This document shows positions 271 through 37,000 of a DNA stretch of 41,610 nt, piece after piece (the stretch's first letter is position 1; each line of letters opens with the position of its first letter). Source of the stretch: Amoebophrya sp. A120 (taxonomy: Eukaryota > Protista > Dinoflagellata); NCBI GenBank assembly GCA_905178155.1, contig CAJINV010000001.1:5075992-5117601 (forward strand). Direction: 5' to 3'. A program made the translations under genes and the position numbers. The notes under the pieces were generated by a model. It had not been told where the DNA came from, made no database searches, and worked only from the letters and a program-made list of their open reading frames with translations.

Positions 271-2918
271 TCAGTTTAGTATCAAACAGACCTCGGGCAC
301 CGCTTTCCATTCGGCGAATTTCTCGCGAAACTGTTTTGCGTATAACCCGCTCAGGTGTTACAATCTCAAACGTTACAATAGAATCTGGAATTTGTGTTGC
401 AAGAAGTGCATGATCTACCCTACTCCCACAGGATTGCGCATGACAAGTTCTGGAGTCCCAATCCGCACTACAATCTGGCGAAATTTGTATTGCAAAAAGT
501 GGAACGCTGTCCGAGTCTGTCATGTTGATCATGCAAGACAAATCTCAGATTCTATTGTAACGTTTGAGATTGTAACGTTTGAGCAGGTCATATTGCGGTC
601 TCCTCGTTTTTGAACTTCAAACAGACGCGTATCAAATGCAAAAATGTCTGGGTCTGGAAACTTGTGATGCTGTGTGGCGTCTCATGATGAGGCCACAAGT
701 GCTGGCTCAGCATGACAAGTTTCTGAGCTTCTAGGTGTTGCCAATTCCGCATGACAAACTGCGCTTCTGCATCACAGAAAAATGGAGCTCTTGGGTAACG
801 TGCATGACAGATTTAAGAGTCATGCCAGACAAGCATGACAAACATGCATTCTTCCAGACCCAGACACTTTTACACTTGATAACGCGCTCCACGGACCCGT
901 CTTCGACAAACGCGTTGAAAACTGCGGTCTTTGGATTGCCCTCGTTCTCGGAGATCGCTGTGATGAGGGCGAATTTTATTTTCGCGATTTTCATATTTGT
1001 ATTTCTGAGTCTGACTCTGAGGCCTACGCCGTGGTCATGCATTAGCATTACACCGAAGCAGAACGCAGTCAGTCTCAGTGGCCAGCTCAAAAACCAGAAA
1101 GAAACTGGCTGCATTTGATTTTGATTGCAAACACTAAAAAAAGAGAGTGAAAAAAATGCAAATACCAAGCTCCGAGCGAACCGGCGTTTGCAGCAAAATT
1201 CGCCCCGTCTTGTCCTGGTGGAGGCAGAAGCTCACCGAATTCTGCGCACGATCGTACAGAAGTTTCCCTTCGCCATTTCCGACGTCGGTCCAGTGCTCAT
1301 CCGGTTCCAGCGTGAACCGGTACAGCTTGCACCGGGCCAAGAAAATTAGTTCTGGTTCGCTGCTCGCAGGAGAAACCACTTTTTTGCTAGCCTCTTTCAC
1401 CGGAAGATGCAGGCTCGGTTGCCAATCTGTGATATTGCGTTGAGATTATCTGCGAACCCCGGAGGCGCTATCGTCGCAGAGCGGCGCATCTAAAAAGCCA
1501 AACTGTGGTAGGCCAGGCTGTCAAAATGATGTAAATATTACGAATACATACTCAAGCTTTTAAGATTTAGAGAAAAAAAGCAAATAAATGGAAAAAGAGA
1601 TTATACTCGGCACTTCCGTGACCTCTTCCTGGGGAACTAGGTCAGTCATTTTCTTCTGCTTTTCGGTCGTCTTTTGTTCTTCGGGCTCCTGGGGTCGGTG
1701 TTCCACAAGCACTTCAGTCACGTCGTTTTGCACACCGGACACACAGGTTGGGTTCTTGATCTCTCCTGCTTCACCGGCAGCAGCGGAAACTACACTTTCG
1801 GCAAAATTGCAGCAGTCTCCCTCTTGGGCCGAACGACAAACAGCTGCTCGCGTTTCCAGTTGTACAAGAGTGTTTGGTGATACTTCTGAGCCAGTGCCGA
1901 CGTCCTCGACCACGACACAATCCCTTTTTTGCAAAGTACTACTTGTAGGTGTGGCTGTGGCTGCACGACTTCTAGCGGCAGTAATACTGTTAACACTGCT
2001 CCTCCGGCGGGACAACAAGGTGTCTGCCACGTGTGTGTCAAAAGCCGGGAGGCTAGTGCCTCGGTTTCGTCTGCTCGTTTCGTCGTCTGCAACACTGTGC
2101 GGCGACGAAAATCCACTTAATGCTGCGGGGGAGGAATGAAAGAAGCCGCTTTCGCAGTCAAGTGCGGTCGACGTCGTTGTGTTAATCTCACTACTTGTAC
2201 CTGCAGTAGTTCCTGTCAACACAACTGTACTAGCTTCGTCAAGGGCATCTAGATTGCGACTGTTCTTTCCTTTTTGTCGTTCACCCGCACTACCCGGTGT
2301 CGCGTTTTTATTCAGACTGCTTTCTCTACTTGTAAGGACGGCGGGAGTGATAGAGATTTTTTCCGTCGATGATGAAAAGAAGTTCAGGGAATTTTGCCGC
2401 TCTTTGTTTAGGACATCATGATGCTCCTCTTGAAAGCTTTGTCGTACAAAGAGAGACTGCGTTCTTCTTGTGAATGGAGAAGTCGTTTCTGGGCCTGTGC
2501 TGCGGTGTACTTTATTCGGTTCGGCGGATGTGGCCGTGCCAAAAATCGTTTCGAAAATCAAGCTTGAGAAGCTCGCAGACGAAGAACGGTTCGGCTCTTC
2601 TACCTCTTCCGCTACTTGGTCCTCTTGTTCATGATCCCGATAAGCATAAGCCTGTTCCTGCTTATGGTTTATTTGCTCTACTGACTGCAAATAATCCGTG
2701 AATCCTGCGAAGTGGTCGCCCGTAAAAGTGGAACTACGAATGGAGTTCCGATTCTGGACGTGGTGGTCATAGGTGTGATTGGAAGTTTTGAAACAGTCTG
2801 TCGTGGTTTCGATACAACCTTGATTTTGACTGGCTACACTTAGGGCAGAGATGGACGCGCGTCGAGCGACTTCCTCGCTCAAGGTAGTGTCAATTTGGTC
2901 TCTAAATCCGTTTTCCAT
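271..2918 (-). CDS. Ran-binding domain (RanBP1/RanBD-type) protein with a long low-complexity N-terminus; 5-exon model, about 581 aa
   Basis: Model exons: 2918-1607, 1426-1166, 957-882, 624-593, 335-271 (1746 nt, in frame). The spliced C-terminus reads LIFLARCKLYRF...WTDVGNGEGKLL...DKTGRILLQTPVRSELAISENEGNPKTAVF...CLKFKNEETAKQFREKFAEW, the RanBD pattern. It has two GT-AG introns (1427-1606, 958-1165) and two introners. The 3' end is uncertain because a further GT intron near 290 is possible. Confidence 0.8.
341..592. mobile_element. Introner (TIR element acting as non-canonical intron), 252 bp
   Basis: TAT...ATA ends with an imperfect inverted repeat of about 60 bp. Direct repeat TTGCG at 336-340 and 593-597. 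Removal plus one repeat gives the RanBD sequence ETAKQFREKF. Confidence 0.92.
630..881. mobile_element. Introner family A, 252 bp
   Basis: TIR TATCAA.TG.AAAA.TGTCTGGGTCTGGAA. Direct repeat ACGCG at 625-629 and 882-886. Removal gives VERVCLKFKN. About 94% identical by manual count to the reverse complement of 35404-35654. Confidence 0.95.
958..1165 (-). other. GT-AG intron containing a decayed TAT...ATA inverted-repeat remnant (994-1164)
   Basis: Donor G|GTATTT and acceptor CACAG give a gap-free RanBD alignment. TATTTGTATTTCT at 994 pairs with TATTTGCATTTTT (minus strand, 1164). No direct repeat survives. Confidence 0.7.
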
Positions 2919-3866
2919 AACGAAGAAGATGAGGTTCGGTTATAATGCAAGGACGCTTCGTCTGGTGCAAACGTCAACATGTAAAAATAAAAATAGAAAT
3001 AATTGTGCGTCGACAACAATTCAACATCCGAGGATGATGAACCAACCACAGCGCAACTAAGGTCAGCCACTACACATCGCACGTCGCTGCTATTCTACTT
3101 ACGCATCATCGCATCGCCATCTGAACAAGCTCGAACGCTTATCATCTTCATCACCGCAAGAAGATCACACGGAACAATTGCTGAATGATGATGATCTTGT
3201 CTATCTTCAACAAGCTTCGAAAATCATAAGGAGCTATTGACGATCTGTCTCGTCTGTCTCGAGACATACAATGCCTCATACATCTGGTATACTCACCCTA
3301 ATGAGATCGTTTTTTGATCGGGAATAGTACACACAACACGGATCACACACAGCACCGCCCTGATCGGTTTCATGTAGGAACGTGATCCCGCGGTGGCACC
3401 GGCAATGATGATCTCCGTCTGACTGAATCTCAGAATTGATCAATAATGAAACGACTGAAGACCACACTGGAGCTTGTAACGAAAGCGAGGAGAAAACACA
3501 TGGGAAGAGCCACATCTCCGTCACAACGACGGGTGCAAGCGCTGCGTCTGCAACTACATGCCGCGAAGCAAAAATCATTTTGCCGCGACTCCCATCATGA
3601 CACACTTCGTGAGCCCACGGAATCAATCAACCAGCTACTTAACATAAAGTAGCGACATTCCTTTTACTATTTTCATCTCTTTCAGTTTCATTCTTCAATA
3701 CCTTTGTATCTTCCTTTTCAGTTTCATGCTCGTCAGCCTCAGTAGCGGTTAGTTCAATTTTCAAAGAGTTCCAGAATCTCCGGAAGCGAAACAAATCATC
3801 TTCAATTTTCAGTGGGGGGCACAACGGCGCTCACCTGTACGTAGTATCCCTTTATACAACTTTTCT

Positions 3867-5620
3867 TTACACTCCGCCCTGCTGTTGAGTCCCCAAGCTG
3901 AGTCCGATCGTGACGGGCCAGGCGCGCGCGCCGTTGATTTCCTCTGACCTGACGTTCAAGCCAGGCACCTTGGCTAAGTGCGGAAACAGCCCAAACTCTT
4001 CGTAGGCGGCGCCAGATCGATCCGGTATCCTGAGTAAAAGCGCCCCCATATCAGAGTCAAGATGGGGAATCTGCTAGACAAATCAGCCAACTTTGGTTGC
4101 TTCGCATGACAAGTTTGTCCTCGTAGTGTAATCCTGTTTAGCTAGTTCAGAAGCATCACAGATCTAGCATAGCATGCCGATTTTAGCATCACAAATTCCA
4201 AAACACGAACAGAAAATGCTTCTCATACGGCCACGCATGAGAAACTTTTTTGGCATGCACAATTGCATCACACCTATGGGGTGGGGACGTTTCTACAAGG
4301 GATATCCGGGTGCATCTGCTCGACGTGATGCCGGAACATGGGATAGGGTGCGCCACTCGGCAAATGCCGAGCCGGCGGAGCATTATAAATCTCTTCGGTC
4401 AGGACGAACCGCGGTTCGGCGTTGGAAAAGGCTAAGAAAGCCAGGTCCGTGATGTATTTCAGCATCTCGGCCTGGGTTCTCCGCAGAGATTCCTCAAAGG
4501 CAGCGAGGAACCGGTTTTGGGGTCGTGGTGTCGGAGCAGGAGCGGGGCCTAGACCAAGAGCGGTTCGTGCCACGCGATTGATTTCAACGAGAGGCGTTCC
4601 AGCACCAGCTGTCCTTGGCATACTTACGGATAAAGATGATGAATTCGCGCTGTCCAGAGATGTCGTGGGCGATCTGTACAGTCCTTGGCCTCTTTCAAAG
4701 TCCCGCGCCAATTGGCACGAGAACAGGGGGTCAAAATCGCTGGCGTTCATCCCGTGAAATTGCATCACGACCGGTCCACGCGCCGGAAATTCCCCGTGGT
4801 CAAAAATGTCACCGATGCCGAACCACGTCCCCTCGGCGTCCATGAAATCGTAGCCTTTTTCCTTCAGAATAGCGCACACGTTCCCAAAGTGAATAGTGGC
4901 TCCGTCCGACATTTTCGGCATCGCCTGCAGCTGCGCCTCGGTAATCGAAATCATGCTGCCGCCGCTTTCCGCCGCCTTGCGGGCCAGGTCGACAAAGTAG
5001 TCCGCCGCGGCCTTCAGGTCTCGGCCCCGCTGGATGTTGGACATCTGTTGTAGATCGGCCATCGGAGTGATGCGGCAAAAATCATGTTTTTCCACCTCGC
5101 CAATAAGAAAACGGATCTTGTGAACGACATCGAGGGGGAGGCGGGCATCGCGCGACAGAATAACCACAACAGCTTTCTCACCTCCCTCTTCCACTTTTCT
5201 CCGGTTCGCGTGGAGGCAACCAAATTGCCAGGAATTCACCTGAACCGAAAAACAGTAGAATAGGAATTGGGAAACAAACTCAAACTTAACTTTATTGGTC
5301 CCGCAGCATAATTGTGTAACACCAGCTCTACGTGCGGGTCAAACTCAAAAATAAAGCTGAAAGTCATGCAAACGTCGCTAAGCCCCATTTGATCTTCCAC
5401 TACGTACCATAGCCCCCACGACTAGCTGTTGATAACGCGTCGCTCTGGTATTTTCTTCCACGGCCTCGAGTGACGAAAGCCACAGTTCGAAGGTTGTATT
5501 TCCGCTTTTCAGCAGAAGATCCGAGAAGGTTTTTTTCTTGGCTTCACGCGAGTCATCAGCATCCTCCCCTGTCGTGCGGGGCGCGACGCTTTGAGAAGAC
5601 GCTGCTGTGGAGGCCGGCAT
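3867..5620 (-). CDS. Uncharacterised tandem family, paralogue 1 (about 433 aa; F-box-like motif)
   Basis: Exons 5620-5408, 5239-4305, 4020-3867. A GT-AG intron (5240-5407) precedes VNSWQF and an introner occupies 4026-4304. Clear similarity to the three other copies. Confidence 0.85.
4026..4304. mobile_element. Introner, 279 bp
   Basis: Ends TATCCTGAGTAAAAGCGCCCCCA and (reverse complement) TATCCCTTGTAGAAACGTCCCCA. Direct repeat TCCGG at 4021-4025 and 4305-4309. Removal gives HPDRSGAAYEEFGLFPHL, matching the paralogues. Confidence 0.92.
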
Positions 5621-6597
5621 CGTGGTTTGTTTGCGGGGTCGGTGGTAGTGGGTAGTCTCAGTGAGATGAAATACACGAAAACGTACAGTCTACAGTTCAA
5701 CAGACCGAAATCGCGAAAATAAAATTCAAATTGATGTAGCCATCGATCACATCTTGTCGTTACAAACCATCAAAGAGGATTGGTACTAGCAGACAAAGCG
5801 TGTGGTTGTGGTACTTGTTTCGAATTGGGTAATAAATAAGCTGTGACTGCACTTTTTTTTCGTGGCGAAATGTAACCGTTAGCACGTAGAGAAGATGCGA
5901 AAAGAGAAGCCACCAAAGTTGTTCAGACTGAGACCGCTCATGCGTTACTATAAAAAAAAGTAACGCGGTATCTAGAACTCGTGCAAGAGCTCAGAACTAC
6001 GGTTCCTATTGGATCGCTTTTCGATCTATTTCCCACAACGTGAGGAGTCGGACAGGCCGCGTGCGACGAACAAAGAAAAAGACAACGCAAGATCGCAATC
6101 GCTTATTCATTGTTAGTGATCTAAGCAACAAAACTGCTTACGCGTAGGAGCATCACTCCGTGTGCGGTCTGAGTGGATGTAGATCTTTTTCGTTACAAGC
6201 TAAAGTAGCGGCCCGGCTAATGTTACATACCTAGTTGAGCGAAAATCCAAATAAACCTGTGAGATCGGCATCTACATGCAGGGAGTAGACACCTTGCTGT
6301 ACCCGAACACTTGCCTACTTGCCTGCGGTCTCACTACAGACCGAAGTGTTTCTTCCCGATTCGTTCGTTGTGCGAACGCGCTCGCGCGCATGCTCGTGTT
6401 CCGGTCATTGAGGTTGCACGATATTCTCCTTCAGCCCAAACAATCGCCAACAAAGTATGTATTTCTTGACGACCTGAATTCCAAGAGTAAGAAGTACAAA
6501 ACTCCTCTTGTTTCGGTGCGACTGCGAGCAGGACCAGGACCACCACAGAAGTTCAAATAAAGCAACAATAGGTGCGACGTAGATGCGTCCGCACTTC

Positions 6598-7986
6598 TCA
6601 GGGGACTGCCGAAATTGTCACGGGAAAGTGCAACACGAAATCATTATCAAATTGGGGAACTACTTGCAGGCCCGAAAACGTCCGCAGATGGTTTAACATC
6701 CGAAACTCGAACCTGTCTTCGAAACGTGCGTGAACGGCTTCCAGATCCCGGTCGAACATCGGATAGCGCACCCCGTTGGGCAGGCGAGGCGCGGCGTCGT
6801 ATATCTCCTCCGTTAGGACAAAGTTAGCGTCTGCATTGGCAAAGGCTTGAAGAGCGAGATCCGTGATGTAGTTTGCGACCTCGTCGCGTGTCACACGCAG
6901 GGCTGCTTCAAATGCTCCAAAAAATCTATTTGTGGATAGATTGTTCGAACCCACAGTAGATGACGAGCCGCCTCCGCCTCCTACTGGTAGTGATGGGGCC
7001 TGGTAGTGCCCGCGCCCCGCTTCCAGCTCTTTCACTATCTCCCGCATGAAGCCTGTTTGCAGCTGCGCGGACTGCGTTTCGTTAAACTGCATCACGATGG
7101 GATAACTGTCGTATGGGAAATTCACCGACCGGCTGGGATGGAATTCACGTCCGTCTCCGGTTTCGCTTGTGAATGTGTAGTCCCTGTCGTACAAAATTGC
7201 GAAAACATTACCGAGGCAGGGGGCAATGCCCTCTGACAGCTTCGGCATGGACGCAACATGCGCTTCTGTTATGAGCAGCTTGTCCCCTCCGCGCTCCGCC
7301 TCCTTCCGCGCCAAGTTCACGAAGTACTCCGCGGCGAGCTTGTAATCGCGCCCGCGTTGCCGATCGGAAATGCGCATCAGTTCATCACTTTGCATTATTG
7401 CGGTCGGTCTGCGCTCGACATTGCCGATAAACGCGCGAATCCTGTTCACGACGTCTAGCGGGAAACGCTTGTGTGATTCAACGACAACAGGGACAGATTT
7501 ACCTTCCCTCGCTGCCTCTTCAACTCTCTTCTTGTTCTGGTGAAGCATCCCAAACTGCCAAGCGTTCACCTATTTCCATTCATTTCGACGAGGACGATCG
7601 AACTATCAATACAAGCATCAGCACGCACGACTGCCACCAAACTCAAGCAACACAATTCCAGTCCTAAGGTGGGACTAAAGAAAGTCAGGTGGAAAGCAGG
7701 ATGGTTCGTTGTACTTTAAATTGTTAACCATAACAGCGAGAATTGAATAACTGCGATCCTGAAGATATTCCAACATTTAGTTATTTACCTGAGCGCCCAC
7801 AACGAGTTTTTGATACCGAAGCGCACGACTTTCGGCTTCCACATTTTCAAGCTCACCGAGCCACCCATCGAAGGTTGCTGTCTTTCCGCTCCCTAGCAGC
7901 AGGTCAGAAAATGTTTTCTTTTTCCCGACTTCTTGCTTTTCTCCAGCATTCCCCGCTTCCGCTGCAGTCGGGAGAGACGCTGCCAT
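6598..7986 (-). CDS. Uncharacterised tandem family, paralogue 2 (about 389 aa)
   Basis: Exons 7986-7789 and 7569-6598. Phase-0 GT-AG intron 7570-7788 before VNAWQF. Confidence 0.87.
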
Positions 7987-8617
7987 GGTGGATGTCGTGT
8001 CTCGCAATTATAAAGCGATGTTGGTAAAAGCACACTATATCAAGGTCGTGCAGTCATCAACTGCAATCAACAGGGAAGAGACAGAAGTGCTGGTAAGTCC
8101 TCGTATTGCATCAAGAAAGTAGCAAAACTCCTCCTAGAACCAAAGGGACACAAAACACCATGAAGGAGGAAGAGCAAAATGACGATAACGATAAGTATTT
8201 TACTTCTTAAGCAATCAATCGATATCGAATCGACCCATCCTCGTGCCAAAATAAAAATGTTATCAATCATAGTACGCGGTAGGCATTCGAACAATCGTCG
8301 AATACATCGCTCTCTTGTCACTCTGGCCCAAGGGCTCAAAATTACGACCACAAGAAACCGAACCAGGAGAGTTTGAGTTACTTACTAGACCTCATGGCGA
8401 TGTGCCTGAACACTTGGCGCCCGCTCGGCTCTCGCTATAGCACAAGGCCTTTCGCAATTATTATCCTTCCATTCGGGTCATGTATATGATTTACCGCATG
8501 CGTCTGCGTCTGCTGCTGCCTTTTTTCTTGCGCGCGTCGCATAATATGCATGCATGCGCGCACATCGCACCCACTGCAGCTTTTGTGTTCGTTTTCAAGC
8601 GCTCGGCAATAATCTCG

Positions 8618-8655
8618 AACCCTAACCCTGGAACCCTAAACAAAAACCCTAAACC
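8618..8655 (+). repeat. Short degenerate interstitial telomere-like tract (CCCTAA/CCCTAAA)
   Basis: aaccctaaccctggaaccctaaacaaaaaccctaaacc. Confidence 0.4.
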
Positions 8656-9403
8656 AGCCCTCCCACCACAAATCGTGCGCCAGTGGTTCCGCGGTTCTCT
8701 TGGAGGTGACACATCGATCAATTTGGGATATCTGAGACGATCTTCGTAAAAAATTGGATAAACGGTGTTGACGTATCATGGTCTTCTGCTCAATCGTACA
8801 ATTTCATAGCTTTCTTGCAGAAACGGAATCGGAAACATTGACATGTTATAGTGCGATCTATCAGTAAGCTCAGTCTTACACGGTGCTGTTACTTCTTAAA
8901 GTTGTGTTTTTTATTTGTAAAAAAAAGTTGAAGGCTGAGCGTGTTCATCATGTTTTCTTTTTATTTTGTAATCCCGCTCTCGACTTACCTTTTTCTCCCT
9001 GATGGGAAAGCGAAAAAATCAAGCACCTGAAAATTCCATGGCGCCCTTGATGAAAGCGACACGAGGAGCCGCTTAGTTCTTCTTCATAGAAGACTTCATC
9101 ACCGTCTTGTTCATCGGCTTCTTCACGTGATAGCGGCGGTGGTTGGGTATGGAAGGATGCTCACGGGCGGTCGTCGTGTTTCATGTCTCACAATCTCAAT
9201 CATACACAAAATCGGCCGAATATCATTCTTTTACACTTTTTCTTTTTGTAGTGATACATGAGAAATCGACGCAACCCACCTAGCAGGTTGCGGGTAGTAC
9301 AAGAAGGCGCATTCTCAGTGCCGATACTATCGCGCACGCATAAAAATATCTCTATCTGCCGGGCGGAAATCGGCTACAAAAAAAATGAAAACAAGTAGAG
9401 ACA

Positions 9404-14502: not shown

Positions 14503-15112
14503 TTTTTGTCAGATACTTGATTTGTTTCTCTGTGATCAGGGACAGGAGAAGCGCTTGGTCTACCGCCTTACTCGACAAACAAGATAAAAATACGACGAGG
14601 ATTTTTTACAGAGGTTACCTACAACAAGAAGAAGAATGTTTAGACTTGGGACTTTCTTTCCCAACGCACCTAATAGGATAGCGAGCTAGAAATTAGGAAT
14701 TAGCGACCAAAATCATTTTGCTCGAGGCCACAATGCGAATACATATACACGCAATGGGGCGAAAGAACGACAATAGCAAGAATCGATTTCGATATGTTGA
14801 TAAAGATTCCGATATAAACGCTCTCGAAAATCAATCATGGCGTCCCTCTACGTTGGCATTCCCACCGACAACATGATCGATCTTCGTTTTCGGTTTCTTT
14901 CCAACGCGAGCTGAAATTCGTACATCTTTCATAGCCGTTTTTGTTGTAGGCGAAGGTGCCACAGCAAGTTGTTCAAATGTTATTTTTCTGTGAGACCCTG
15001 ACGCCCTGAGACCCAAACCAGCGAAACACGACGGCAGCGTGGTTTTCTTGTGTTTAGAATGACGCAAAATAAATACTCATAGCATCGCGATTTCGATTTC
15101 TCTTGTTTTTTG

Positions 15113-16130
15113 GGGGATCTGCCTTTTCCACGGGGATCCGCCCGTTCCCCGGGGATCCGCCTGTTACTCGGGGATCCGCCCGCTCCCCGGGGATCCGCCT
15201 TCGCCCAGGGGATCCGCCCGTTCCCCGGGGATCCGCCTTCGCCCAGGGGATCCGCCCCTTCCCCGGGGAACCGCCTTCGCTCAGGGGATCCGCCCGCTCC
15301 CCGGGGATCCGCCTTCGCGCAGGGGATCCGCCCGGTCCCAGGGGATCCGCCCGTTCCCCGGGGATCCGCCTTCGCTCAGGGGATCCGCCCGTTCCCCGGG
15401 GATCCGCCTGCGCGCAGGGGATCCGCCCGCTCCCCGGGGATCCGCCTTCGCCCAGGGGGTCCGCCCGGTCCCAGGGGATCCGCCCCTTCCCCGGGGATCC
15501 GCCTTCGCTCAGGGGATCCGCCCGTTCCCCGGGGATCCGCCTTCGCTCAGGGGATCCGCCCGTTCCCCGGGGATCCGCCTTCGCTCAGGGGATCCGCCCG
15601 CTCCCCGGGGATCCGCCTTCGCCCAGGGGGTCCGCCCGTTCCCCGGGGATCCGCCTTCGCCCAAGGGATCCGCCTGCTACTCGGGGATCCACCCGCTCCC
15701 CGGGGATCCGCCCGTTCCCCGGGGATCCGCCCTCGCCCAGGGGATCCGCTTGTTCCTCGGGCATCCGCCCGTTCCCGGGGGATACGCCCGTTCCCCGGGG
15801 GCTCCGCCCGCACCCCGGGGGATCCGCCTTCGCCCGGGGGATCCGCCTGCTCTCCGGGGGATCCGCCCGCTCCCCGGGGATCCGCCTGTTCTGAGGGGGA
15901 TCCGCCTGCTTTCCGGGGGATCCGCCCGCGCCCCGGGGGGTCCGCCCTCGCCCCGGAGGGCCGGTCCGCCTCCCGCGGATCCGCGCGCCCTGGGTCGCGC
16001 CTTTGCTGGGGGGGGTCCAGCCTACGAACTTTCTTTGGGGGGATCCTCCTCAGCTCGGGGGATCCGCCCTCACCCCGGTGCGTTCGCTCCAGCCTCCGGG
16101 GATCTCCCCTTGCCAGGAGGGATCCGATAT
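15113..16130. repeat. GC-rich 19-bp minisatellite (GGGGATCCGCC plus 8 variable nt)
   Basis: GGGGATCC recurs at 15132, 15151, 15170, 15189 and onward. The array degenerates after about 15960. Confidence 0.95.
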
Positions 16131-16285: not shown

Positions 16286-16542
16286 GGGCACCGGCAAACC
16301 GGCGCACATTTCTTGCTTCGGCTTGGTTCTTACAAGTTGTCAGTGTGTTGCTGGTTGTCAAAGCGCCGCTTTGACAACCAACAGCAGGATCGAGATTTGA
16401 CAACCACACAGAAACAAGAGGCGTTCGCACAACCACCCGAGGCCTTGAGAATCGAGGGAGTGCGCGCCGGTCTGCCGCGATGCCCTGCACTCGAGTGCGT
16501 TCCAAAATCTTCCAAAATGTGCGCCGGTTTGCCGCGGTGCCC
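16286..16542. mobile_element. Possible MITE-like element with an internal perfect hairpin
   Basis: Inverted ends GGGCACCG(CG)GCAAACCGGCGCACATTT. Hairpin TGGTTGTCAAAGCG-C-CGCTTTGACAACCA at 16352-16380. No TSD seen. Confidence 0.45.
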
Positions 16543-18902
16543 GAAATCGACACTGTGCCGCCGGGGAAAGACCGCGAAGGACGGCGCGAATCCGGCCAGA
16601 GGATTCCGGAGAGGATTTTGGAATCCTCTCAGGGACGAATCCTCTTCCGAAATCGAGGCAATACCGCCGGGGGAAGGGCGCGGAAGACGGCTCAACTTGG
16701 GCCAGAGGATTCCTGAGAGGATTTTGGAATCCTCTGCGGAATCCTCTGTGGAATCCGCGCCCGAAATCGAGGCAGTGCCGTCGGGGAAAGGGCGCGAGGG
16801 ACGGGCCAACTTGGGCCAGAGGATTCCTGAGGGGATTTTGGAATCCTCTGCAGAATCCTCTGCGGAATCCTCTCGCGAAATCGAGGTAGTGCCGCCGGGG
16901 TAAGGGCGTGGAAGACGGACCAACCTGGGCCAGAGGATTCCTGAGAGGATTTTGGAATCCCCTGAGGAATCCTCTGCGGAATCCTCTGTGGAATCCTCCC
17001 CCGAAATCGAGGCACTGCCGTCGGGGAAAGGGCGCGAGGGACGGCGCAACTTGGGCCAGAGGATTCCTGGGAGGATTTTGGAAGCCTCTGCGGAATCCTC
17101 CCCCGAAATCGAGGCACTGCCGTCGGGGAAAGGGCGCGGAAGACGGCTCAACTTGGGCCAGAGGATTCCTGAGAGGATTTCGGAATCCTCTGAGGAATCC
17201 TCTGTGGAATCCTCTGGGGAATCCTCCCCCGAAATCGAGGCACTGCCGTCGGGGAAAGGTCAGGCGGACAGGCCCGGGCGACCTCTTTTTCTAATTGGTC
17301 TCTGAAAGTTGTCTAATTTGAGAACCAAAAGAAGGCGCAGGCGCAGAAAAAAACACCCCGGCCGAACATCCTAGCCCGAGGGCGATGCCTCCTCGAAGAG
17401 CCAAACCCTCCGACCATTGCTGCTCCACTGGCGGGCGCAACGGAATCAACAGGGCCCAAAATCAGGCAAAAAAAGCAACCCGGAACGGAGAAACACCACA
17501 CCCACCCCGCCCGGCCCAAAGCCTTGCCGGAACACAAAGAAAGGCCCACCAAGAGAATTCATGGCGCCAGCGCAAGCCGATGCACGCGGCGCCCAACCAA
17601 TCAAAGGCCCGGCCGCAGGCCATTCAAATTCGAAGAGAGGGCGCGGGCGGGCAAACATCGGCCGGACCAAAATGAAAGGGCACAAATTAGAATCGGCTTC
17701 AAATTTGTGTCCGGCGCGCGCCGGTTTCGTGTCTAATTTGCGTCCGGGGACACCCCGCGGCCCCCCGAAAAAAAGGTAGCTAATCTGAAATCTAATTTTT
17801 TTGGAACCGTGTCTAATATGCTCTTTAATCTGCATCTAATTTGCAGAGGCCCCCGGCCCCCCCGCCGGAAAAATCGTTCCCGATTTCCTTGTGCAAAATT
17901 TCGTCGGTTTTGCACAGGGAAATCGGTAACGATTTTCGGCCGCTGCAAATTAGCCAGCCAATTAGCGCCTATTAGCCGCTACATTAGCTGCAAATTAGGC
18001 GCGGATTAGCTGCAAATTAGGCGCAGATTAGAAGCGCCTAAATGAGGCCCGTTTTCCAATTAGAATTTCAAATTAGAATTTTCATGGAGGTGTTCCCGGG
18101 GCTTTTGGCGGGCATGTCAAACATGGCCGATGCCATGTTTGAAATGCCCACGCCCATGCCCGCCCCCAGGCGAAGAAGAAGGAAAACACAGGACCAAACA
18201 CGAAATCCCCTGCCGGACCAAAATCCGTCGGCCCGCCACACCCTGCCCAGAACACACACAGACACGCGCCAAGCCGGAAAGGCCACAGGCTGAACGCCAA
18301 GCCAGAACACGCCCCCGGCGGCCGGACACGACTTCCAGGCCCAAGGGGGACGAACCGCCGGCGGCAATGCCACAAAGCGAAAGGCGCCATCGCCGCGAAA
18401 TCGGCAAAACCAGGAGGCCGCGGGCCCCCATTTGAATAACGGCGCGCCGAATGTTCCCAATACGTTGCGCAACGAGATTCGGCACGCAACCAACCCGACG
18501 CCAAGGGGCTCCACACGCTCGCAAATTAGCCGGATTTTAATTGATAATTAGAACCGGAAGGCGCCCGGGCCTGTCCGCCTGAGGAAAGGGCGCGAGGGAC
18601 GGCTCAACTTGGGCCAGAGGATTCCTGAGAGGATTTTGGAATCCTCTGCGGAATCCTCTGTGGAATCCTCCCCCGAAATCGAGGCACCGCCGTCGGGGAA
18701 AGGGCGCGGAAGACGGCTCGACTTGGGCCAGAGGATTCCTGAGAGGATTTTGGAATCCTCTGAGGAATCCTCTGTGGAATCCTCCCGCGAAATCGAGGCA
18801 CTGCCGTCGGGGAAAGGGCGCGAGGGACGGCTCAACTTGGGCCAGAGGATTCCTGAGAGGATTTTGGAATCCTCTGAGGAATCCCCTGCGGAATCCTCTG
18901 CG
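16543..18902. repeat. About 114-bp satellite with a variable number of 12-bp GGAATCCTCTGN subrepeats, interrupted by a TIR element
   Basis: Unit starts (GAAATCGA) at 16543, 16649, 16763, 16877, 17003, 17105, 17231, 18675 and 18789. Units are mostly 102, 114 or 126 bp (the first is 106 bp). Confidence 0.92.
17260..18582. mobile_element. Non-autonomous DNA transposon, 1323 bp, with 7-bp TSD
   Basis: TIR TCAGGCGGACAGGCCCGGGCG at both ends. TSD GGAAAGG at 17253-17259 and 18583-18589. Subtracting 1330 bp restores an exact 114-bp satellite unit. Confidence 0.9.
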
Positions 18903-19084
18903 AAAATGTGCGCCGGTTTGCCGGGGCCGCCAGGTTGCTCGCAATCCGCAGCCGACTGTGGCGATTTGGGCGCACGAGACTGCAACGCAGACGCGGCGCG
19001 GTTGTGCACACAAACAGCAGCGGCGTCCTTGCGCGCGCCGCGTTTTCGGTTGCATTGCAACACACTTTAGCACGAGCGAAGCCG

Positions 19085-19104: not shown

Positions 19105-19422
19105 AAACGACCTTGCCCGAGCGGAATCCATTGATTTCTGGGTCTCACAGCGTCACTTTCTCTTTTCTGTTTGGGCAACTATCGTACAAGAAGTCTATTG
19201 AGTTTTTCGTTTGTTGGTTCTCGAAATCGAACTTCTCTGATATCAGACTTGGATAGTGTTTTTGCTTGCGCGTAGAAGGAGGTTTACTATCTATGAAACA
19301 TACATATAGTAGGTACAGGCATACAAAGATCCGTCACGCTTCTTTTCCCCGTCGGTCTTCAATACAATTCGTGAGGAAGGAAGCAAGAAACCGTCATTAT
19401 TTTGCTGGTACACATACAGGGA

Positions 19423-20104
19423 TTAGACAAGGAAAATTCCAGAAGTACATCAAAAATCGAGCACCCCCCTCCCACGGGGTGGCGGCGGGGCGAGATGATT
19501 TGTCTGCGTTGCGGCTAGTAGCGGCCCGCCCCATTTCTGCAAGCCTATCGGCCCGGACCAGCCGCGACTCCTTCTCGAGTAGAAAGGGCAAGCGCGCATC
19601 TGCCGCGCAAGTGTTTCGCCTTTGGCGCAACTGGCTCGGGGGCTCGTTTACAAACAAGGCCGGCCAAAACTCTACAAAGGCGACAGGCGGAACCCAGGGG
19701 CCCCCCTCCAGGGGGGTGCCTGAGGGGGGTACTTTTTTTGATTCCGAAATCGGCCATTTTAGGTCGGGGGAAGGAACGCCAAGGGGGGTGCTTTTTGGGG
19801 GTGCTTTTTCTTGGGCAAAAGGGGGGCCCTTGGATTGGCCCCGCGGCGCGACTTTCCAGGAGACGGCCATTGCTCATTGGATCCGGAAAGACCTGGCCGC
19901 AGAATTCTTGAAGTATTGTCGTGGTGTTGCTCTGGGTGGTGACGGAAGACGAACGCCGAAGCCGGCGGCGTTTCCGGTTGTGTGGGACCCACTGAAGAAA
20001 GCCGCCACCTAGATGAAGCCTACCCGAGCCAACCGCCTGTCCCGTCACCCCACGGGAGGGGGGTGCTCGATTTTTGATGTACTTCTGGAATTTTCCTTGT
20101 CTAA
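19423..20104. mobile_element. Non-autonomous TIR element (MITE-like), 682 bp
   Basis: Near-perfect TIR of about 60 bp, beginning TTAGACAAGGAAAATTCCAGAAGTACATCAAAAATCGAGCACCCCCCTCCC. Flanks share only GGGA (degenerate TSD). Confidence 0.85.
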
Positions 20105-20404
20105 ATGGGAGAAGGCGATAGTACAAGAACTGGTGTCATCAATTACGTTTCTGGCGCGCGTTGGTCGTACTAGACTGAAAGAACCGTATACATAGTCATC
20201 AGAAATAGAAACAGAAGTACACCCTATTTGTTTTGGATTTCCATCTCACTGCAGGTGGACTTGCGGTCCGCGAAAACAAAAGCAGGTGGAGAGGTGATAG
20301 AGATAGTGCTTTCTTTTCATACAATTTCAAGTCGTAGGTCTTCAGCTACCGTGGATGAACAAAACGATGTCGGTAGGTCAAAGTATCGAATGCCTTGTTC
20401 CACC

Positions 20405-20890: not shown

Positions 20891-21188
20891 GAAAACAGTT
20901 CATCTTTTATCATCACTTAAAGAGGTCGACAACTTGTAGACGTACAGTGATTGACTGGAGCTCTTTCTCTCTCCCGTTAGCCCCCCGCTCTTCGCTAACG
21001 CGGTCGGCTGCTGCACTGAATGGACTCCCGAGCTGCGCCCTTGCCGTGCGAAAAGAAATCCGAGTAAGATGCCCGACAGAAGCAACGCGAAACCCTGGGC
21101 GTGGCGGAGGTAGTGTTCCTGTTGTTGGTTTTTGTTTTTCGAATAAACAAGAGGTGTTCACCTAGACTAGTATGTTGAGTCGATGTCT

Positions 21189-29834: not shown

Positions 29835-31422
29835 GCTCAAACTTGAAAAATAGGTGGCGGATTGCTGGCTCACGCTCACCACATCGTCGTGGTCGCTAAA
29901 TTTCTTCTACAGCGAAAGTCGCCTAGTAGTGAAAAACGAGAGTCATACAATTACAATGATAGATACATTTTCATCCTCGTACGACTCTCGGTTATCTTGC
30001 AGTCAGTTGGATGTGATAGTGATTGTGAAGAGCAGTTGTAGTTGTAGTTGATTTGGGTGTTACTAGAGCACGAGAAATCAAAAGTGGAGCAACAAGAACG
30101 GAAAGGCTATCTTCGAGCAACAAAAAGCACAACAAAAACAAGAACTCAATGACCAGCTAATTGGAGTCAGATACTTCTGCTTCGTCTGCTCCAAGAAAAA
30201 AAGAGGGCCTCTAGGCCAGATCGCAACTTGCTGATGTTGACCTTGAGACTCGTCTCGGGCTACATTCATAAGTACTTAAAGTAGCAAAACCGGAGAGAAC
30301 TACGAAACGCGAGATCCTGTGGCCAACTTCTTTTTAGTAAGTGTAAGACCAAGTCCACATAAAGCATGGCTCTATGCGAAACGAAGAAGATTGCTCGATG
30401 AAGGGTACTAGACGAAGCAACTGAAATTTCCCGAAGTTTAATCTCCAGCTTTGTTCCTGAAGTGCGGGAACAGTCTACAACAGCCCAAAACGTCCATGAG
30501 AGGACTGCAATCGAGTTCTTCGTACATGGTGATGGTCCGGTCGTGGATGCGCTTCAAAAATCACAATCTTCAAAGAAATTTCCATTTTGCAGTGGTCGCA
30601 GCAGGAGTGCGCCTACTTCTACGAGCAGGAAGCCGCACTCGGTCAGGTACTAGTACACCGTATTGGTATTTTATTTTGTTTCTATATCTATCGTACAAGC
30701 AAGACCAGCTCCTCGGGTGCTTCATTTGCGAAAAATCGTCTGCACGCGGAATCCTTGTCCAGTTCGTTGTAGTTCGGCCACTAGCTACTTCTGGCCGGAC
30801 CCAGAGCGCACTACTTTTTCGCGCAAGCTGCGGTACTCCTGGCGTCGTCCAGCGGTCCGTCCCTTCCACTTGTCAATGCGGAACAAGTGCGCCACCTTCT
30901 ATACGGACCGCGTCCCTTCAGCGCCAACCACCATCCTCGTGCTCGTCGTCCTCGTCCGCGTGGTCTTACTTCCGGATTATACCACAATCCTGCTCACCAA
31001 GTTCATCTGTCGCGTCGGTTCACTCGCTGCAAACAAGCCCGAAACTCGGATGAAATAACGCCGTTCTTCACGACGTGTGAACCTTTCCGTGATCAGCTGC
31101 GCGTCGTGCCTGCTGCGTCCGGTTGGGGAAGATGGAAAACACACAGTCCTCTGCACCAAAAGATCAAGGAACAAACGCAGTGAAGCTCATGGTAGCAGAG
31201 GGAATGGCGGTGCGGAACCGCTTGCGCAGGCGGACTAACACGAACGTAGGGCGCTGTAGTTCTGACGGGACTTACTGCTGCTGCTTTTGCTTTGGTATGC
31301 CCTGGTACCTGAAGACATTGCGTGTCATGATCGTGGAGTTTCTCGTGGTAAATCACACACAAACACTATGAATGTATCACAAGTGAAAATCTTGCAGGAT
31401 GTTCATGGTGAAACAAGGTGGT

Positions 31423-31992
31423 CTAATTGCAATAACATATATTGAAATTCAAGTACAATCCGAGCAGGTTGAAGAACAAGTTTTCCGGCTTCTTCTTCGA
31501 CGTTGCTCCAAGTCCGAGTTCAATGTTTCTTCGCACACTTTCTGGATCTGGGTGCTTGTTGTTTCCCCTGCTGTTCTTGTTTAGCATGCCGTTCGTGCCG
31601 GTACTACTACTGCCTGGCATGCCAGCTGCACCGCCCCCGCAAAGGAATTGTAGATGCTCCGTACCACCTCCAGCGGAAGTCGGTGTTGAAGCGGAGAGGA
31701 GACTGCTGTTCGGGTCATTGTGTGTGATCAGGCCCGGCGACATGGCGACGCAACCATGATTGCTGACGATATCGGACGGGTCGGGCTCGCAAGCAGGTTC
31801 TCGGACCTCCTTGTTCTCTTTCTCCTCCTCGTCTTTCTTAGTCTTTTGCAGCACCACACTGTCGGCATACACCTTGTAAGCGTAGCCCGCAAAGAGCAAC
31901 GCCGCGCCCAGCTTTACGCACGCAAACAAAAATGTCATTTTCGAGCTGCTTGCCGAACTTGTACTTGTTGCACCGTCACTGCTCGTTGGCAT
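31423..31992 (-). CDS. Hypothetical protein with a single N-terminal transmembrane/anchor segment
   Basis: 189-aa ORF. Hydrophobic FLFACVKLGAALLFAGYAY is followed by a charged segment. The 3' end may be spliced. Confidence 0.55.
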   Translation of the reverse strand: MPTSSDGATSTSSASSSKMTFLFACVKLGAALLFAGYAYKVYADSVVLQKTKKDEEEKENKEVREPACEPDPSDIVSNHGCVAMSPGLITHNDPNSSLLSASTPTSAGGGTEHLQFLCGGGAAGMPGSSSTGTNGMLNKNSRGNNKHPDPESVRRNIELGLGATSKKKPENLFFNLLGLYLNFNICYCN

Positions 31993-33378
31993 GGTCGGAC
32001 TAGTATCTCAGTTTCTCTGATACGGAAATTATAAGTTGTGACAGCGGGAAAAACAATCTGCTGGTTGACAACGAACGCGAGCGCACGATGGACCCGGCAA
32101 TCATATGCGGAAGAGAAAGCGAGAACACAAAAAATCTACGTCGGCTTGGCTTTGGGCGGGTTACGAGCGAATCATACAACTTCAACTCATCTTCACCCAC
32201 GGCAACCATACAAAGGATAGAAAAAAAGATAGATTCCTTGGAGCACTTCTGAGTTTTCGACTTTGGCCTTCTAGCCTGTCGCGCCAGGTCTTGATAGTAC
32301 GGCTTTTATTTTTTTAACCTCAACCCCGAATACAAATATGATGAGATTCATTTCAGAAGATGAGAACATGAGGTTACTTTTAGTAGATTCGACTTACCGA
32401 TGACCCTTTTCACTTCTCCCAACACCAACCCTGCTGAAAGTCTAGAGGCCCAAAGAGAACGAATAGATACGAAAATCCAGTAGCAGTGCCCTAAATGCTG
32501 TTTTCCGCCCGGCGTAATTCAACATTACCAATACCAACTACCGAACTATCACAGCATTTTTCAACACATGCAGACGACTCACTCGAAGGCACATGCCCCC
32601 AAAAACACAAACAGAAGCATTTTTCTCCGCGAAGCGAACCCATGCAAGAACACACGACTATCGATCCGAAAAAACGATTCATCTTGATGAGTTCGATTAC
32701 TTTCAGTTCTATTCTTCGCGCATCTATGTATGATACATATACAAGGCATCATAATGAAGTAGATGTGTACAGATTACATGCATTCTGCTGTTCGGCATCA
32801 GATGGCTCGGCTTTCCGCTGCCGCAAGAAAAGCGGACAACTGCAAATAGAAACACTTGCAATCAATCGGAAAACAAAAGGAAGGTGGTCACGGAAACTTG
32901 TTGAAATCAAATCCTCAGAATGGGTGAATGCCGAAGACCCGAATCAAAAAACCATATCGATACCGTTGGTTCTGTTTTTTGTAGCACAGATTTATATAGG
33001 AAAAGAAAGTCTCGAGCTCCATAGGTAGCCAGTGCTGTTGACATCGTCCATTGAACCGTCGTGTCGAGACGAATCGCTGAAAAAGGCACATTGTATCTGT
33101 GGCCTCTACTTTTCATAAAATCATCATGAAACGTGACGGATGCAAAAAAAAGTGAGCTGCAAAAATTTAAATTTTTAAATTTTTGTTGAACCGTATTTAC
33201 GGAACAGTCTATCTTTCCGAGACACATTAATTATTCACATCAAAGTAGAACTAGAAGCGCACTCCCACTCGAAACTATTTTGATTTTCTCTAGTACAACT
33301 TGTAGTTTTATGCATCGACTACGACTACCTATATAGCCATCAGCATAGATTGTTGTGCCACTCGACCGCGGTGTGCTG

Positions 33379-33591
33379 TCACTTGTGCTTTTTATGTTGT
33401 CCAGAATTTGGCAGGGTTGTGCCAGACGCCGCGGTTTTTGCCATTTTCTGCTGCTTCCGTTTATACCGTTCCTCGATGGCCTTTCTCTTGCTCAACTCGG
33501 CCTTCTGACGTGCGCGAGCCGACGCGTTCCATTGCCAAGCCATGAATCTGTGGATATTAGGTCGAGTAGTGGTTTGCTTCGGCTTCAACAT
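33379..33591 (-). CDS. Small basic hypothetical protein, 70 aa
   Basis: ATG-initiated K/R-rich ORF with a plausible helical segment, preceded by a pyrimidine tract and AG. Confidence 0.4.
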   Translation of the reverse strand: MLKPKQTTTRPNIHRFMAWQWNASARARQKAELSKRKAIEERYKRKQQKMAKTAASGTTLPNSGQHKKHK

Positions 33592-34070
33592 TGACGAGTT
33601 GCCTCAGAAACAAAAATGCACACTTACACGAGATACATCTTCACTGAGCGAAGATCTTAAAAGAACGTAAAGTACTTTCTTACCCAAACAATCCGAGAAA
33701 CAGGCTGGTGGCGACCAGTTGCACGACCTGTTGCACCCAGCAGGAGAAACCCTCTTCGCTGGTACCGAAAATGCTGTTTTTGGTTTTATACGCACCCCAA
33801 TCCGGACGGGAAGAATACGCACGTGAATCCTCCCGTATCTGCAAGAACGACCTCACACAAGATGCTACATGCGGAGCTTTTCACTCTGACAGGAATTCCA
33901 GCAACATCAAAGTGGACGAGCCACAAAAGATTGCTTCTAATCGGCAAGAACGTAGCGCGAAAGATGTTGATAGTGATGCGCTTATGGCCATCAGCAGCCG
34001 AAGAAGGAGGCAAGTCTAAGTGCTTAAAAGTCCTCTCGCATGTAGTTGCACTTGCACGTACAAGTCGTCC

Positions 34071-37000
34071 TTAAGAACAAGAACCTCTGTTGTAGTCATG
34101 CAGTACTTCTGCGGAGGTCTCCTGCGGACACAGGCGGATGCACAACTCGCATACGGATTCTTGCACTTTCATGCTGGCCATCTTCTGCATCATGAAGTAG
34201 TACTCCGTTTGCAGCGACTATCCAAGAAAAAAACTGTGTAAGTGTAAGTTTGTAGGAAGAGCAGCATCACAAATTCGCTTTGCATTACAGGGAAAACCTA
34301 TCATGCGCAGCTAGTACGTGGAAACACCTATGAAAGTAGCCTATGAAGCAGATCCAGCATGACAAGTGTATACAGTTTTGCACTTTCTGCATCACAGACT
34401 TACGCTCACATAGTTTTCTTCTGGCATAGCGACCGGACCTTGTCCGCGCGTTCGCTCTCATATCAAATGTAAAAGTGTCTGGGTCTGGAAGATTGCCAGG
34501 TTTACCATGCACATTTTGCATGACTCCTGATGTCTGTGATGCATGCCCTAGCGTCACAGATTTTGTGAGGGCTTCCTGATGCCTATACCGCATGACCAAT
34601 GCTCTTTCCGTGTGGCAAAACTTGAACCCTCTTTGCAGCTGCTCATGCAATACAGATTTTTTTAGAATCCAAAATCAGCATGACAAGTTGGATTCTTCCA
34701 GACCCAGACATTTTTACAGTTGATATCTCATCCAGCGCTTCGAATGTGAGTTGGATCCGCCCCGGCAGCTTATGGGAGTCGAGTGTCAGTATTGAAATCG
34801 AAAAAGTTGAATATAACTTGTAATGCTAAACCGAAAGCGAAATAATTTGTAATGCATAAAATCGATACCAGTTGGAAGCCCAATTTCCAAGCGGCCGGCG
34901 CATGACAAATTTCGGCACCGTTTACATCCAGCTTGTCATTCTGTTTAGGGACAGAAAACGTCCTTTGTCATGCTACTTTAGCAGCTCTATCGCAGACCCC
35001 AAACAGGATGACAGTCGGCCTCGCTTGCCATCCCTGCAATAGAGGCGCGCGCGCTTCATGTCTTGATGCAATTTATGCATGGAAAATCATTTCAACTTTG
35101 TCGATTTCAAACCTGACGCTTGCATACAGCTCCGGCGACTTGTAGTCTTTGAATTTGTCGAACTCTTCGCGGTTCAGAGAGCCGAAGCAGTGCACGGTGA
35201 GCTGAGAGAGCATATGAACTGCAGAAGTATCGTACTAGTATGAATCGCGTGACAAATTAGCTTAGCATGACGAATGGAATTTGTCATGCTGTTTTACCTT
35301 GGGAAAAAGATCTGTAATGCATGATTGCAATTACTACGAGTACGATACTTTTGCACAGGATAGAGCAGTTGCGAAAGCAGTTCGTGCTTGCCGCGGGCCA
35401 TGTTATCAAGTGTAAAATGTCTGGGTCTGGAAGAGTTCATGTTTGTCATGCTTGTCTAGCATGACCCTTAAATCTGTCATGCACGTTACCCAAGAGCTCC
35501 GTTTTTCTGTGATGCAGAAGCGCAGTCTGTCATGTAGAATAGGCAACACCTAGGAGCTCAGAAACTTGTCATGCTGAGCCAGCATCTGTAGCCTCATCAT
35601 GAGACGCCACCCAGCATCACAAGTTTCCAGACCCAGACATTTTTACATTTGATACATGTAGAGTTCGTACAGCTGCTTCTGCCGCACTTCCTCCCCGCCC
35701 CGCAACGCCCACTTGGAGTTCTGCACTTCCTGTCCCGACATCTTCAGACAGGTGTGCAGCAGCTTGTAGGTATCAGCGTCCCCTTGCTTTTGCACAAGTA
35801 TCCAAGAAGGGCACAAATTGACTAACACGAGGGCAAAATCGAGGTCATCTACTTCTTCTTTTCGCGGTCCTCTACTTCGAGCACGAGCGTTTCAACTTTA
35901 ATGTTCTCAAGACAATCACCTTATATCTCCATGAAGATGAACATGCAGGCCCACTAGACTACATAAAGATCATGAAGACAGTATCTATCACTATGACTAT
36001 GAGCTGCATGTAAGTACGACTGAAACTAGGTATGACATATCATTCTTGACTCCGCCTACTTCCTTGAGCAAGCCAGCACAAATCAGATAAATTTAAGTGG
36101 AGTTTTTACTACATATGCATGCACTATCATACTTACTATGATAATGCTTGTGCTGCACCTTCCACTCCCCCGCCCTTGCACGAGCACGACGGTCCTTCTG
36201 GATACAATTCAGCATTGCCACCCCGAGCTGCTGCACCGAGATGTTTTCGCGATTGAGCCACAGCATCAGGCGATGCGCGCGGTCGCCCAGCTGCTTGATT
36301 GCGTCGGTGACCTCGTCCGCCTTGTCGCTGTTGAGGTTAAACACGTTGTTCCCCAAAAACAGATCCGCGACCTCGGTGCGCATTTTCTCGATTTTGTTGT
36401 CCCGGTCCCAGAGCGAAGCGTGCTTCATGCCATCCACCTTCTCGTAGATAATCCGGTTAAACCAGTCGAACGCCAGGTACTGCGAGTCCGTTTATCCCAC
36501 AGAAAAAAGCAGGAAAATCTGCACTGCGTATCCCAAATAGCATGCTTTCAGCTCGCCAATGACAGACTCACTTTTTTTCAATTTCACTTCTGATTCTGTT
36601 AAATTATTTATTTCTTTTGCGTTTGCCAATGTGCCCTGCCTGCTTTTTGCTGTATGATATCCCCTCCTGGTTGCCCAGCGCGTCGGACAGCATCGCTTCG
36701 GCGAGCGCCTTGCTGGTCGGGTCCGCTCCGCCGCCTGTTTCTTTGTTCACGTGTGCGTTTGGGAAGAAAATCTGGCTCAGGTACAGCCGTGCCATTTTCT
36801 TGATCTCGTCGTCCGCCTGCTTCCGTTGCTTCACCTCCTCCCGCACCCGCCCATATGCGGCGTGCACGAGCTCCTTGAGAACTTTCTTCGACATAGCGCT
36901 TTTGCCGGGGAGCGCTGTTCCGTCGGGCGTAGTACTACTAGCTACAGTAGCGCCTTCTTCTCCGCTCAGTTGTTGTTCCTTTTTGGCCAGCATTTCCTGG

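Follow-up and report, generated by a model that had tools for sequence, protein, structure and literature searches.

A window of 41,610 nucleotides (nt) of Amoebophrya sp. A120 (assembly GCA_905178155.1, contig CAJINV010000001.1, positions 5,075,992 to 5,117,601 of the forward strand; "the window" means this whole stretch) contains short repeated elements within its genes that start with TAT and finish with ATA, among them two related copies, copy 1 and copy 2, that face opposite ways relative to their host genes. These elements are non-autonomous DNA-transposon copies with random target duplications of 5 base pairs (bp), inserted in exons in either orientation, and their relatives outside the window face both ways without orientation bias in the large families. 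Removal at the RNA level, defined by the terminal repeats, is highly probable. For the fuller account that we favour, i.e. that TAT...ATA elements are cut from RNA together with one duplication, at positions measured from the repeat ends and probably by a relaxed U2-type spliceosome, our confidence lies just above even.

The elements are the same as the introner elements described for strain A120 by Farhat et al. 2021 (PMC7789003; 1954 families with TAT + 7 nt + AAA repeats, a hairpin and non-canonical ends), as judged by organism, repeat motif, non-canonical ends, hairpin and a length of about 250 nt. Non-canonical introns represent 65% of the supported introns of A120, and their removal was left as an open question (PMC7789003).

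Two copies in opposite orientation and their host genes

The reverse complement of copy 2 (35404-35654) differs from copy 1 (630-881) in 16 of 252 alignment columns, and blastn between the copies gives 93.7% identity over 255 nt. Once 32 nt had been removed from both ends, comparison of the interiors gave a score of 310 in opposite orientation, against 22 in the other orientation and a maximum of 24 for shuffled sequence; as only the opposite orientation gives an alignment, the flip is genuine rather than a product of the inverted repeats. Both copies carry the TAT start and ATA finish, a terminal inverted repeat of about 30 nt and an exact 5-bp flanking duplication. In transcript sense, each is predicted to fold into a single long terminal stem (copy 1, -118.1 kcal/mol, z -7.7; copy 2, -111.4 kcal/mol, z -6.9), and none of 200 shuffles was as stable as either fold; the window yielded no Rfam match. 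Short length, terminal inverted repeats, a fixed-length target duplication and many copies, the characters of MITEs (miniature transposable elements with inverted repeats), were all found. The element is repeated in the genome, as is reflected by 42 related interiors that form one component and by a very high summed depth of X5 contigs over 601-900; a search of the window and of the outside loci described below found no long autonomous element.

Removal of copy 2 was observed in contigs. One contig in each of four runs carries all ten joints of a transcript with eleven exons (33200-38325), and the copy-2 joint (35398/35655; 256 nt, i.e. element plus 5) is present in contigs of all four runs, which represent one sample of unstranded contigs whose RNA nature was inferred by a program; the contigs also join a GT-AG intron, which supports their RNA nature. 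The ten joints yield one frame of 819 codons on the minus strand (best plus-strand frame, 568), and the GT-AG intron within this transcript is likewise on the minus strand. No Pfam match above cut-off was obtained for the 819-codon protein when its exon pieces were scanned. Exons of just 28, 40, 80 and 37 nt between successive elements in 34428-35398 are correctly joined. An eleventh joint links 35465 with 35614 (short side of 24-25 nt, two of the four runs); it was set aside as probably stemming from another copy.

All seven intact elements with a contig joint lose element plus 5, and a GT-AG reading is found for none of them in any of the six to eight equivalent registers that the duplications allow; the registers of copy 2 include GT..AT and AT..AC, and copy 1 has a GT register. 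For one of the seven (34461-34725), orientation relative to copies 1 and 2 is not assignable (scores of 116 vs 112, and 129 vs 132). Three further introns of the copy-2 host have decayed duplications, which leave few registers and so fix the position of the cut: on the transcript strand, all three are compatible with cleavage 1 nt ahead of TAT and 4 nt beyond the far repeat end (register 1+4), and one of them also allows 2+3. Table S4 of PMC7789003 was considered as support for the register polarity and rejected, for the predominant A120 types listed there have T at +2 in nine of nine cases, but A at -2 in eight of nine.

For copy 1, the best protein match to the exon at 1167-1445(-) is CAD7924137.1 (GSA120T00003531001), a model of Amoebophrya sp. 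A120 with 2911 amino acids, which aligns to the minus strand with 99.5% identity to 1602-2918(-) and 100% identity to the small exons 881-958, 594-629 and 292-339, and which continues straight through the copy-1 site once element plus 5 is taken out; the A120 gene models were built from aligned transcripts (PMC7789003). The same exon matches Pfam Ran_BP1 (E 1.2e-5, profile positions 9-66 of 122). A RanBP1 profile was made with 516 domain sequences that the other protein matches provided; against it, the sequence with copy 1 removed scored 69.2 bits (profile positions 15-136 of 139), compared with 45.6 bits with copy 1 retained and 45.4-47.0 bits for frameshifted removals; removal of element plus 2 (71.0 bits) or plus 8 (64.4 bits) scored close to plus 5, and the profile therefore fixes the frame and not the removed length. 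Enumeration of all reading frames at the junctions left the boundaries unfixed. Pfam gave no match for the pieces 881-1000 and 884-1231, and PDB none for the exon 887-985 alone; two word-index protein searches returned no match, with length limits that exclude the 2911-residue model. Contig run X1 is without depth over 901-1200, and the raw-read RNA runs X9 and X10 gave 1 and 0 reads. Copy 1 is likely also removed from transcripts, judging from completion of the RanBP1 domain and from the public gene model.

The original prediction had described the two copies as reverse complements with about 16 differences in 252 positions, in hosts that are both on the minus strand, and this description was borne out by the 16 differing columns and the opposite-only alignment of the interiors, by the Ran_BP1 exon and the public protein for copy 1, and by the 819-codon frame and the GT-AG intron for copy 2. 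That either orientation restores the reading frame on removal holds with an amendment: loss of the element alone is insufficient, and one 5-bp duplication must go too (257 and 256 nt).

Two irregularities were noticed around copy 1. The X1 contig shows 10 differences from the window in 35-202, and X5 has the alternative letter at full depth at 7; in addition, residues 551-580 of CAD7924137.1, beside the copy-1 micro-exons, comprise a 15-residue repeat that is missing from the window, and a flaw of the assembly or a local duplication may lie behind these mismatches near the window start (35-228). Upstream of the copy-1 exon, the intron 959-1164(-) opens with a G and then TAT, and the public model joins it at about 958; it is possibly a decayed element.

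Orientation, frame and intron ends outside the window

When 17 of 64 parts were scanned for exact matches to the 30-nt repeat, 146 loci were obtained, 80 of them with long flanks; all bear contig names of a single second assembly and match the window only in their elements, and the collection is a sample biased to the 30-nt repeat type, and not genome-wide. After merging of overlaps, 324 elements were obtained, with a perfect duplication in 254 and a one-mismatch duplication in 49; among the 56 complete elements with the 30-nt repeat, 52 have an exact 5-bp duplication. Host strands were called with a codon model trained on three contig-joined frames of the window, which passed leave-one-out on all three; in the window, long frames with high scores lie mostly on the minus strand, and junction and whole-locus strand calls agreed in 173 of the 175 cases in which both were made.

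Relative to the host, the copy-1/2 family is oriented 17:15 (3 of 35 uncalled), and copies with at least 85% identity 8:8 (17 copies, one uncalled). Signed clustering gave 20:19 for this family (42 members, window copies included) and 39:48 for the largest family (of 108), with no sign conflicts; these ratios agree, in this sample, with the near 50:50 distribution that had been anticipated. Other clusters showed 13:4, 10:10, 7:11 and 3:10. Independent of any strand call, nine related pairs share one stop-free frame each, and in three of these pairs the two members face opposite ways (Table 1). A Pfam search with 150 of the 162 flanking pieces, in the called frame only, gave 14 matches at E 0.01, seven of them above cut-off, and the matching flanks sit beside copies of both orientations; at locus L078, a DAGAT domain continues across an element (143-186, then 188-259; the second piece just under cut-off).

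Removal of element plus 5 gave the best coding continuity for 15 of 17 copies in sense orientation and for 13 of 15 in antisense, in a test that favours plus 5, since strand and model were chosen on the plus-5 sequence. In a fairer control, with a model from the three contig-joined frames only and both strands free, plus 5 won in 181 of 303 cases, plus 4 in 9 and plus 6 in 11, the remaining 102 being undecided.

For the intron ends, 221 elements were evaluated on the transcript strand. Intron position +1 is G in 71 (flank background, 31%), and 21 have AG at their 3' end; 10 elements allow GT-AG in at least one register (opposite-strand control, 7), a number that rises to 21 when GT, GC or GA donors with AG are allowed (control, 15). 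The duplications being random and the dinucleotides at control level, neither the interior nor the target supplies splice sites. These counts also speak against cryptic spliceosomal signals carried separately by each orientation, one of the conditions under which the original prediction would have failed. Its claim that strand-specific signals are unlikely to define these introns stands for interior signals and for co-opted GT/AG signals, which are excluded, while motifs inside the inverted repeats remain.

The inverted repeats are conserved position by position. Among 265 elements, which were found by requiring TAT/ATA and at least 9 of 15 pairs, a requirement that inflates arm pairing, pairing is seen in 243-251 at positions 9 and 11-13, and in 158, 177 and 113 at positions 4, 5 and 7. 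A subterminal motif, CAT[GC]AC, is present in 215 of 221 elements of unrelated families (13.1 per kilobase vs 2.2 outside) and has no polarity relative to the transcript (353:369); we infer that it is a candidate transposase-binding site. On the transcript strand, G-U is no more frequent than A-C among the mismatched arm positions (196 vs 210; per element, 74 vs 91), in a test weakened by the many arm mismatches that were inherited from the founder element. Recognition had been attributed to the symmetric terminal stem or to excision at the DNA level: long stems do fold, but the repeat content reads the same after a flip, and hence the flip does not show that the stem, rather than its sequence, is read; DNA-level excision is disfavoured, as set out below.

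Removal from RNA and alternative explanations

For the account that we favour, the following steps are proposed. A transposase would insert the element with a 5-nt stagger and in random orientation; in the precursor messenger RNA, the two repeats would pair and/or the outer 14-nt motif (TAT-7 nt-AAA) would be bound; the 5' cut would be placed 1 nt ahead of TAT, and the 3' cut 4 nt beyond ATA, in the same phase of both duplications, so that the original exon would be rebuilt exactly. With all cis information in the repeats, a flip would change nothing. The data suggest that the cis code reduces to the outer inverted repeats and the candidate 1+4 spacing, and that it depends neither on the interior nor on orientation nor on the terminal dinucleotides.

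With RNA-level, repeat-defined removal given, the chance that the spliceosome is the catalyst appears somewhat better than even. The 1+4 register always places TA at intron positions +2/+3, as in three of three canonical donors seen here, which speaks for the spliceosome. A120 retains nearly all spliceosomal proteins, whereas U1 small nuclear RNA (snRNA) was not detected (PMC7789003), and non-canonical introns of transposon origin in Fritillaria are reported to depend on the U2 spliceosome (10.1101/2025.08.15.670264); the retained proteins and the Fritillaria precedent slightly favour a relaxed U2-type spliceosome over a dedicated enzyme. Either-orientation introners with ordinary splice sites exist, and the flip alone thus does not exclude the spliceosome.

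A dedicated, non-spliceosomal RNA cut-and-join reaction that reads the terminal stem with overhangs of 1 nt and 4 nt, like that of euglenid nonconventional introns, is a possibility to which we give appreciable weight, though well short of even. It would account for the dispensable terminal dinucleotides and for the long terminal stem in both orientations, and the failure to detect U1 snRNA in A120 is in its favour, as is Euglena with a similar code of a short 5' and a long 3' spacer (PMC12501133) and circular excised introns (PMC11282704); in a single case, the repeat of a resolved intron ends in GTA and so keeps a G-U pair with TAT. The overall lack of a G-U bias counts against such a reaction, as does the uneven arm pairing (weak at 4, 5 and 7, strong at 9 and 11-13), which resembles a motif rather than a plain stem, and the identity of positions +2/+3 with the canonical donor. 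We know of no candidate enzyme.

Excision at the DNA level from a transcribed genome copy, like that of ciliate internal eliminated sequences, would be in keeping with the transposon anatomy, the precise loss of one duplication and the indifference of CAT[GC]AC to transcript direction, and yet is very improbable: X5 contigs (all 30 bins covered, DNA-like) cross element-exon borders unchanged in 855-4079 and 4198-9000, X5 depth across the elements equals flank depth and these contigs contain the filled site (15 of 73 joints listed), the elements are present in the DNA of the second assembly, and the register follows the transcript in all three resolvable introns, albeit of one gene. We consider it equally far-fetched that these are ordinary spliceosomal introns in which each orientation carries or co-opts GT/GC/GA and AG in the manner of Polarella and Aureococcus: such a state is known for other either-way introners, the GT register of copy 1 and the GT..AT and AT..AC registers of copy 2 could be read this way, and both unambiguous 5' ends are GT, but the register counts given above, including the lack of any GT-AG reading among the seven RNA-joined intact elements, largely refute it. 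Least credible of all is that the elements are not removed in the cell, and that the joints are artefacts of reverse-transcriptase template switching across a hairpin with direct repeats. A hairpin with a short direct repeat is a classic setting for template switching, and the joints come from complementary-DNA contigs of one sample; against this, retention breaks reading frames (including those of RanBP1 and of the L078 DAGAT domain), two joints without any direct repeat (slide 0) keep the identical spacing, and a single contig per run carries all ten joints.

Several observations weigh against removal from RNA by a 1+4 rule and against the spliceosome as its agent. All RNA joints come from one sample of unstranded contigs whose RNA nature is guessed, and copy 1 has no RNA joint, X1 being without cover over 901-1200. 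Three introns of a single gene are the basis of the 1+4 register, with GT at the start of the two unambiguous ones, and when 44 mismatched duplications were used for a codon test of the register, the outcome was flat. Host strands outside the window derive from the codon model, and just 7 of 150 flanking pieces reach the Pfam cut-off; among 12 families tested, two smaller ones are skewed in orientation (13:4, p 0.05; 3:10, p 0.09). With G-U not in excess, nothing on the transcript strand points to selection for an RNA stem, and no cognate transposase was found in the window or in the 146 outside loci. Finally, free first and last intron bases are hard to reconcile with spliceosomal chemistry.

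Other features, known systems and meaning

The coordinates of the features are collected in Table 1.

Table 1. Elements, duplications, exons and introns of the window, and opposite-orientation pairs at outside loci
Position	Strand	Feature	Basis
341..592	-	Neighbouring TAT...ATA element, other family, same gene as copy 1, exact 5-bp duplication	CAD7924137.1 resumes at 339
598..629	-	Micro-exon between copy 1 and element 341-592, putative part of RanBP1	CAD7924137.1 residues 549-560 = 594-629, 100%
625..629		Target duplication of copy 1, left, 5 bp	
630..881	-	Copy 1 element, 252 nt, TAT...ATA; interior antisense to copy 2 in transcript sense	
882..886		Target duplication of copy 1, right, 5 bp	
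1161..1433	-	Exon with N-terminal half of RanBP1 domain, RanBP2/Nup358-like copy-1 host	Pfam, public model
4026..4304	-	TAT...ATA element of a different gene, lost as element+5	Joint 4019/4304
33200..38325 (left end as far as covered)	-	Copy-2 host transcript: 11 exons, 1 GT-AG intron and 9 TAT-element introns	
33812..34154	-	Decayed-duplication intron, single register GT..CT, 1+4	
34219..34428	-	TAT...ATA element, removed as element+5	Contig joint
34461..34725	-	Element with same 30-nt inverted repeats, different interior, removed as element+5	Contig joint
34771..35126	-	TAT...ATA element, removed as element+5	Contig joint
35213..35362	-	TAT...ATA element, removed as element+5	Contig joint
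35399..35403		Target duplication of copy 2, left, 5 bp	
35404..35654	-	Copy 2 element, 251 nt, removed with one duplication	Contig joint 35398/35655, 256 nt
35655..35659		Target duplication of copy 2, right, 5 bp	
35795..36205	-	Decayed-duplication intron, single register GT..TG, 1+4	
36489..36660	-	Decayed-duplication intron, two registers possible (1+4 or 2+3)	
37268..37428	-	TAT...ATA element, removed as element+5; relative of 35213-35362 in the same orientation	Contig joint
L004		Opposite-orientation pair in one frame of 1121 codons	
L048/L049		Opposite-orientation pair in one frame of 451 codons	
L014		Opposite-orientation pair in one frame of 184 codons	

Two tandem paralogous genes, 3626-5774(-) and 6369-8228(-), share a GT-AG intron at an identical codon position, and the TAT element at 4026-4304 is present in the first paralog only (in the contig-covered part); its presence in one of the two indicates a recent intron gain. 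A larger sequence of 797 nt (19398-20194) has TAT...ATA ends, a 5-bp direct repeat and a GC-rich interior, and encloses a 63-nt inverted repeat of 95% identity (19423-19485 / 20042-20104); it is perhaps a nested or different transposon. Tandem repeat arrays are located at 15112-16126, at 16539-18905 (period of about 114 nt) and at 40069-41124 (GC content up to 84%, with CG runs). At the outside locus L022, positions 3001-3800 comprise an unpaired repeat end followed by GC-rich repeated sequence to the contig end, which could be the start of a longer element.

In comparison with the published description of A120 introners (PMC7789003), the direct repeat of 3-5 nt at the element borders is represented here by 5 bp, and the non-canonical ends with removal from the transcript were found for copy 2. 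The splice position relative to the hairpin was described there as variable and without a clear signature, whereas here the removed length is constant at element plus 5, with 1+4 as the candidate register. The four uses of "orientation" found in the main text of PMC7789003 refer to gene blocks; an orientation tally or a fixed register for A120 was not found in the literature searched, and subscription papers and figures (e.g. Fig. S23 of PMC7789003) may hold them.

Introners in either orientation are described for Polarella glacialis, with reference to Aureococcus anophagefferens, and have ordinary splice sites (10.1101/2020.10.14.339549); PMC10228655 likewise attributes either-orientation introners to Huff 2016. 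The Polarella and Aureococcus introners are also inverted-repeat transposons with target duplications that form introns both ways, and they carry or co-opt GT/GC/GA and AG, use particular targets and show an orientation bias in the classes described (10.1101/2020.10.14.339549); the A120 elements, in contrast, have random targets, need no dinucleotide and are unbiased in the large families. Introner diversity is covered in PMC9860276 and PMC12130899, the latter of which dropped families with unverified non-canonical ends and noted integrase-like elements in A120.

Parallels have been reported for euglenids, diplonemids, fungi and tunicates (PMC12501133, PMC11282704, PMC12621601, PMC8469720, PMC12787238, PMC13149111, 10.1101/2025.08.15.670264). 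Euglenid nonconventional introns also have self-complementary motifs at fixed, unequal distances from their ends, no GT-AG and a proposed MITE origin (PMC12501133, PMC11282704). The Euglena code, in an unrelated lineage, reads N3-CDG...CHG-N5-6 (3 and 5-6 nt; PMC12501133), as opposed to N-TAT...ATA-N4 (1 and 4 nt) here, and Euglena requires a purine at exon position +1, which is found in 140 of the 221 elements here. The non-canonical introns of Fritillaria borealis are MITE-derived as well, with ends set by inverted repeats (10.1101/2025.08.15.670264; PMC11282704), but prefer AG-AC and AG-AT ends, whereas both terminal bases of the A120 introns come from a random duplication.

Flip tolerance by itself and these introners were known before; our data suggest that what is new is the neutrality to orientation, in combination with targets that are random, the lack of splice dinucleotides and a 1+4 ruler as a candidate. 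The finding refines a described system and is not a new system unless the catalyst proves to be non-spliceosomal. It is a tentative and rather doubtful proposition that A120 silences tens of thousands of either-way insertions by a spliceosome-independent ruler which needs only N/TAT...ATA-NNNN/ ends (slashes mark the cuts); if true, this would be a second, convergent case of a Euglena-type splicing code. The element-plus-5 or repeat-end rule is usable for gene finding in the A120 genome, and the question of the catalyst becomes directly testable. For the biology of the organism, repeat-defined removal would explain how a class of transposons could spread through exons without cost.

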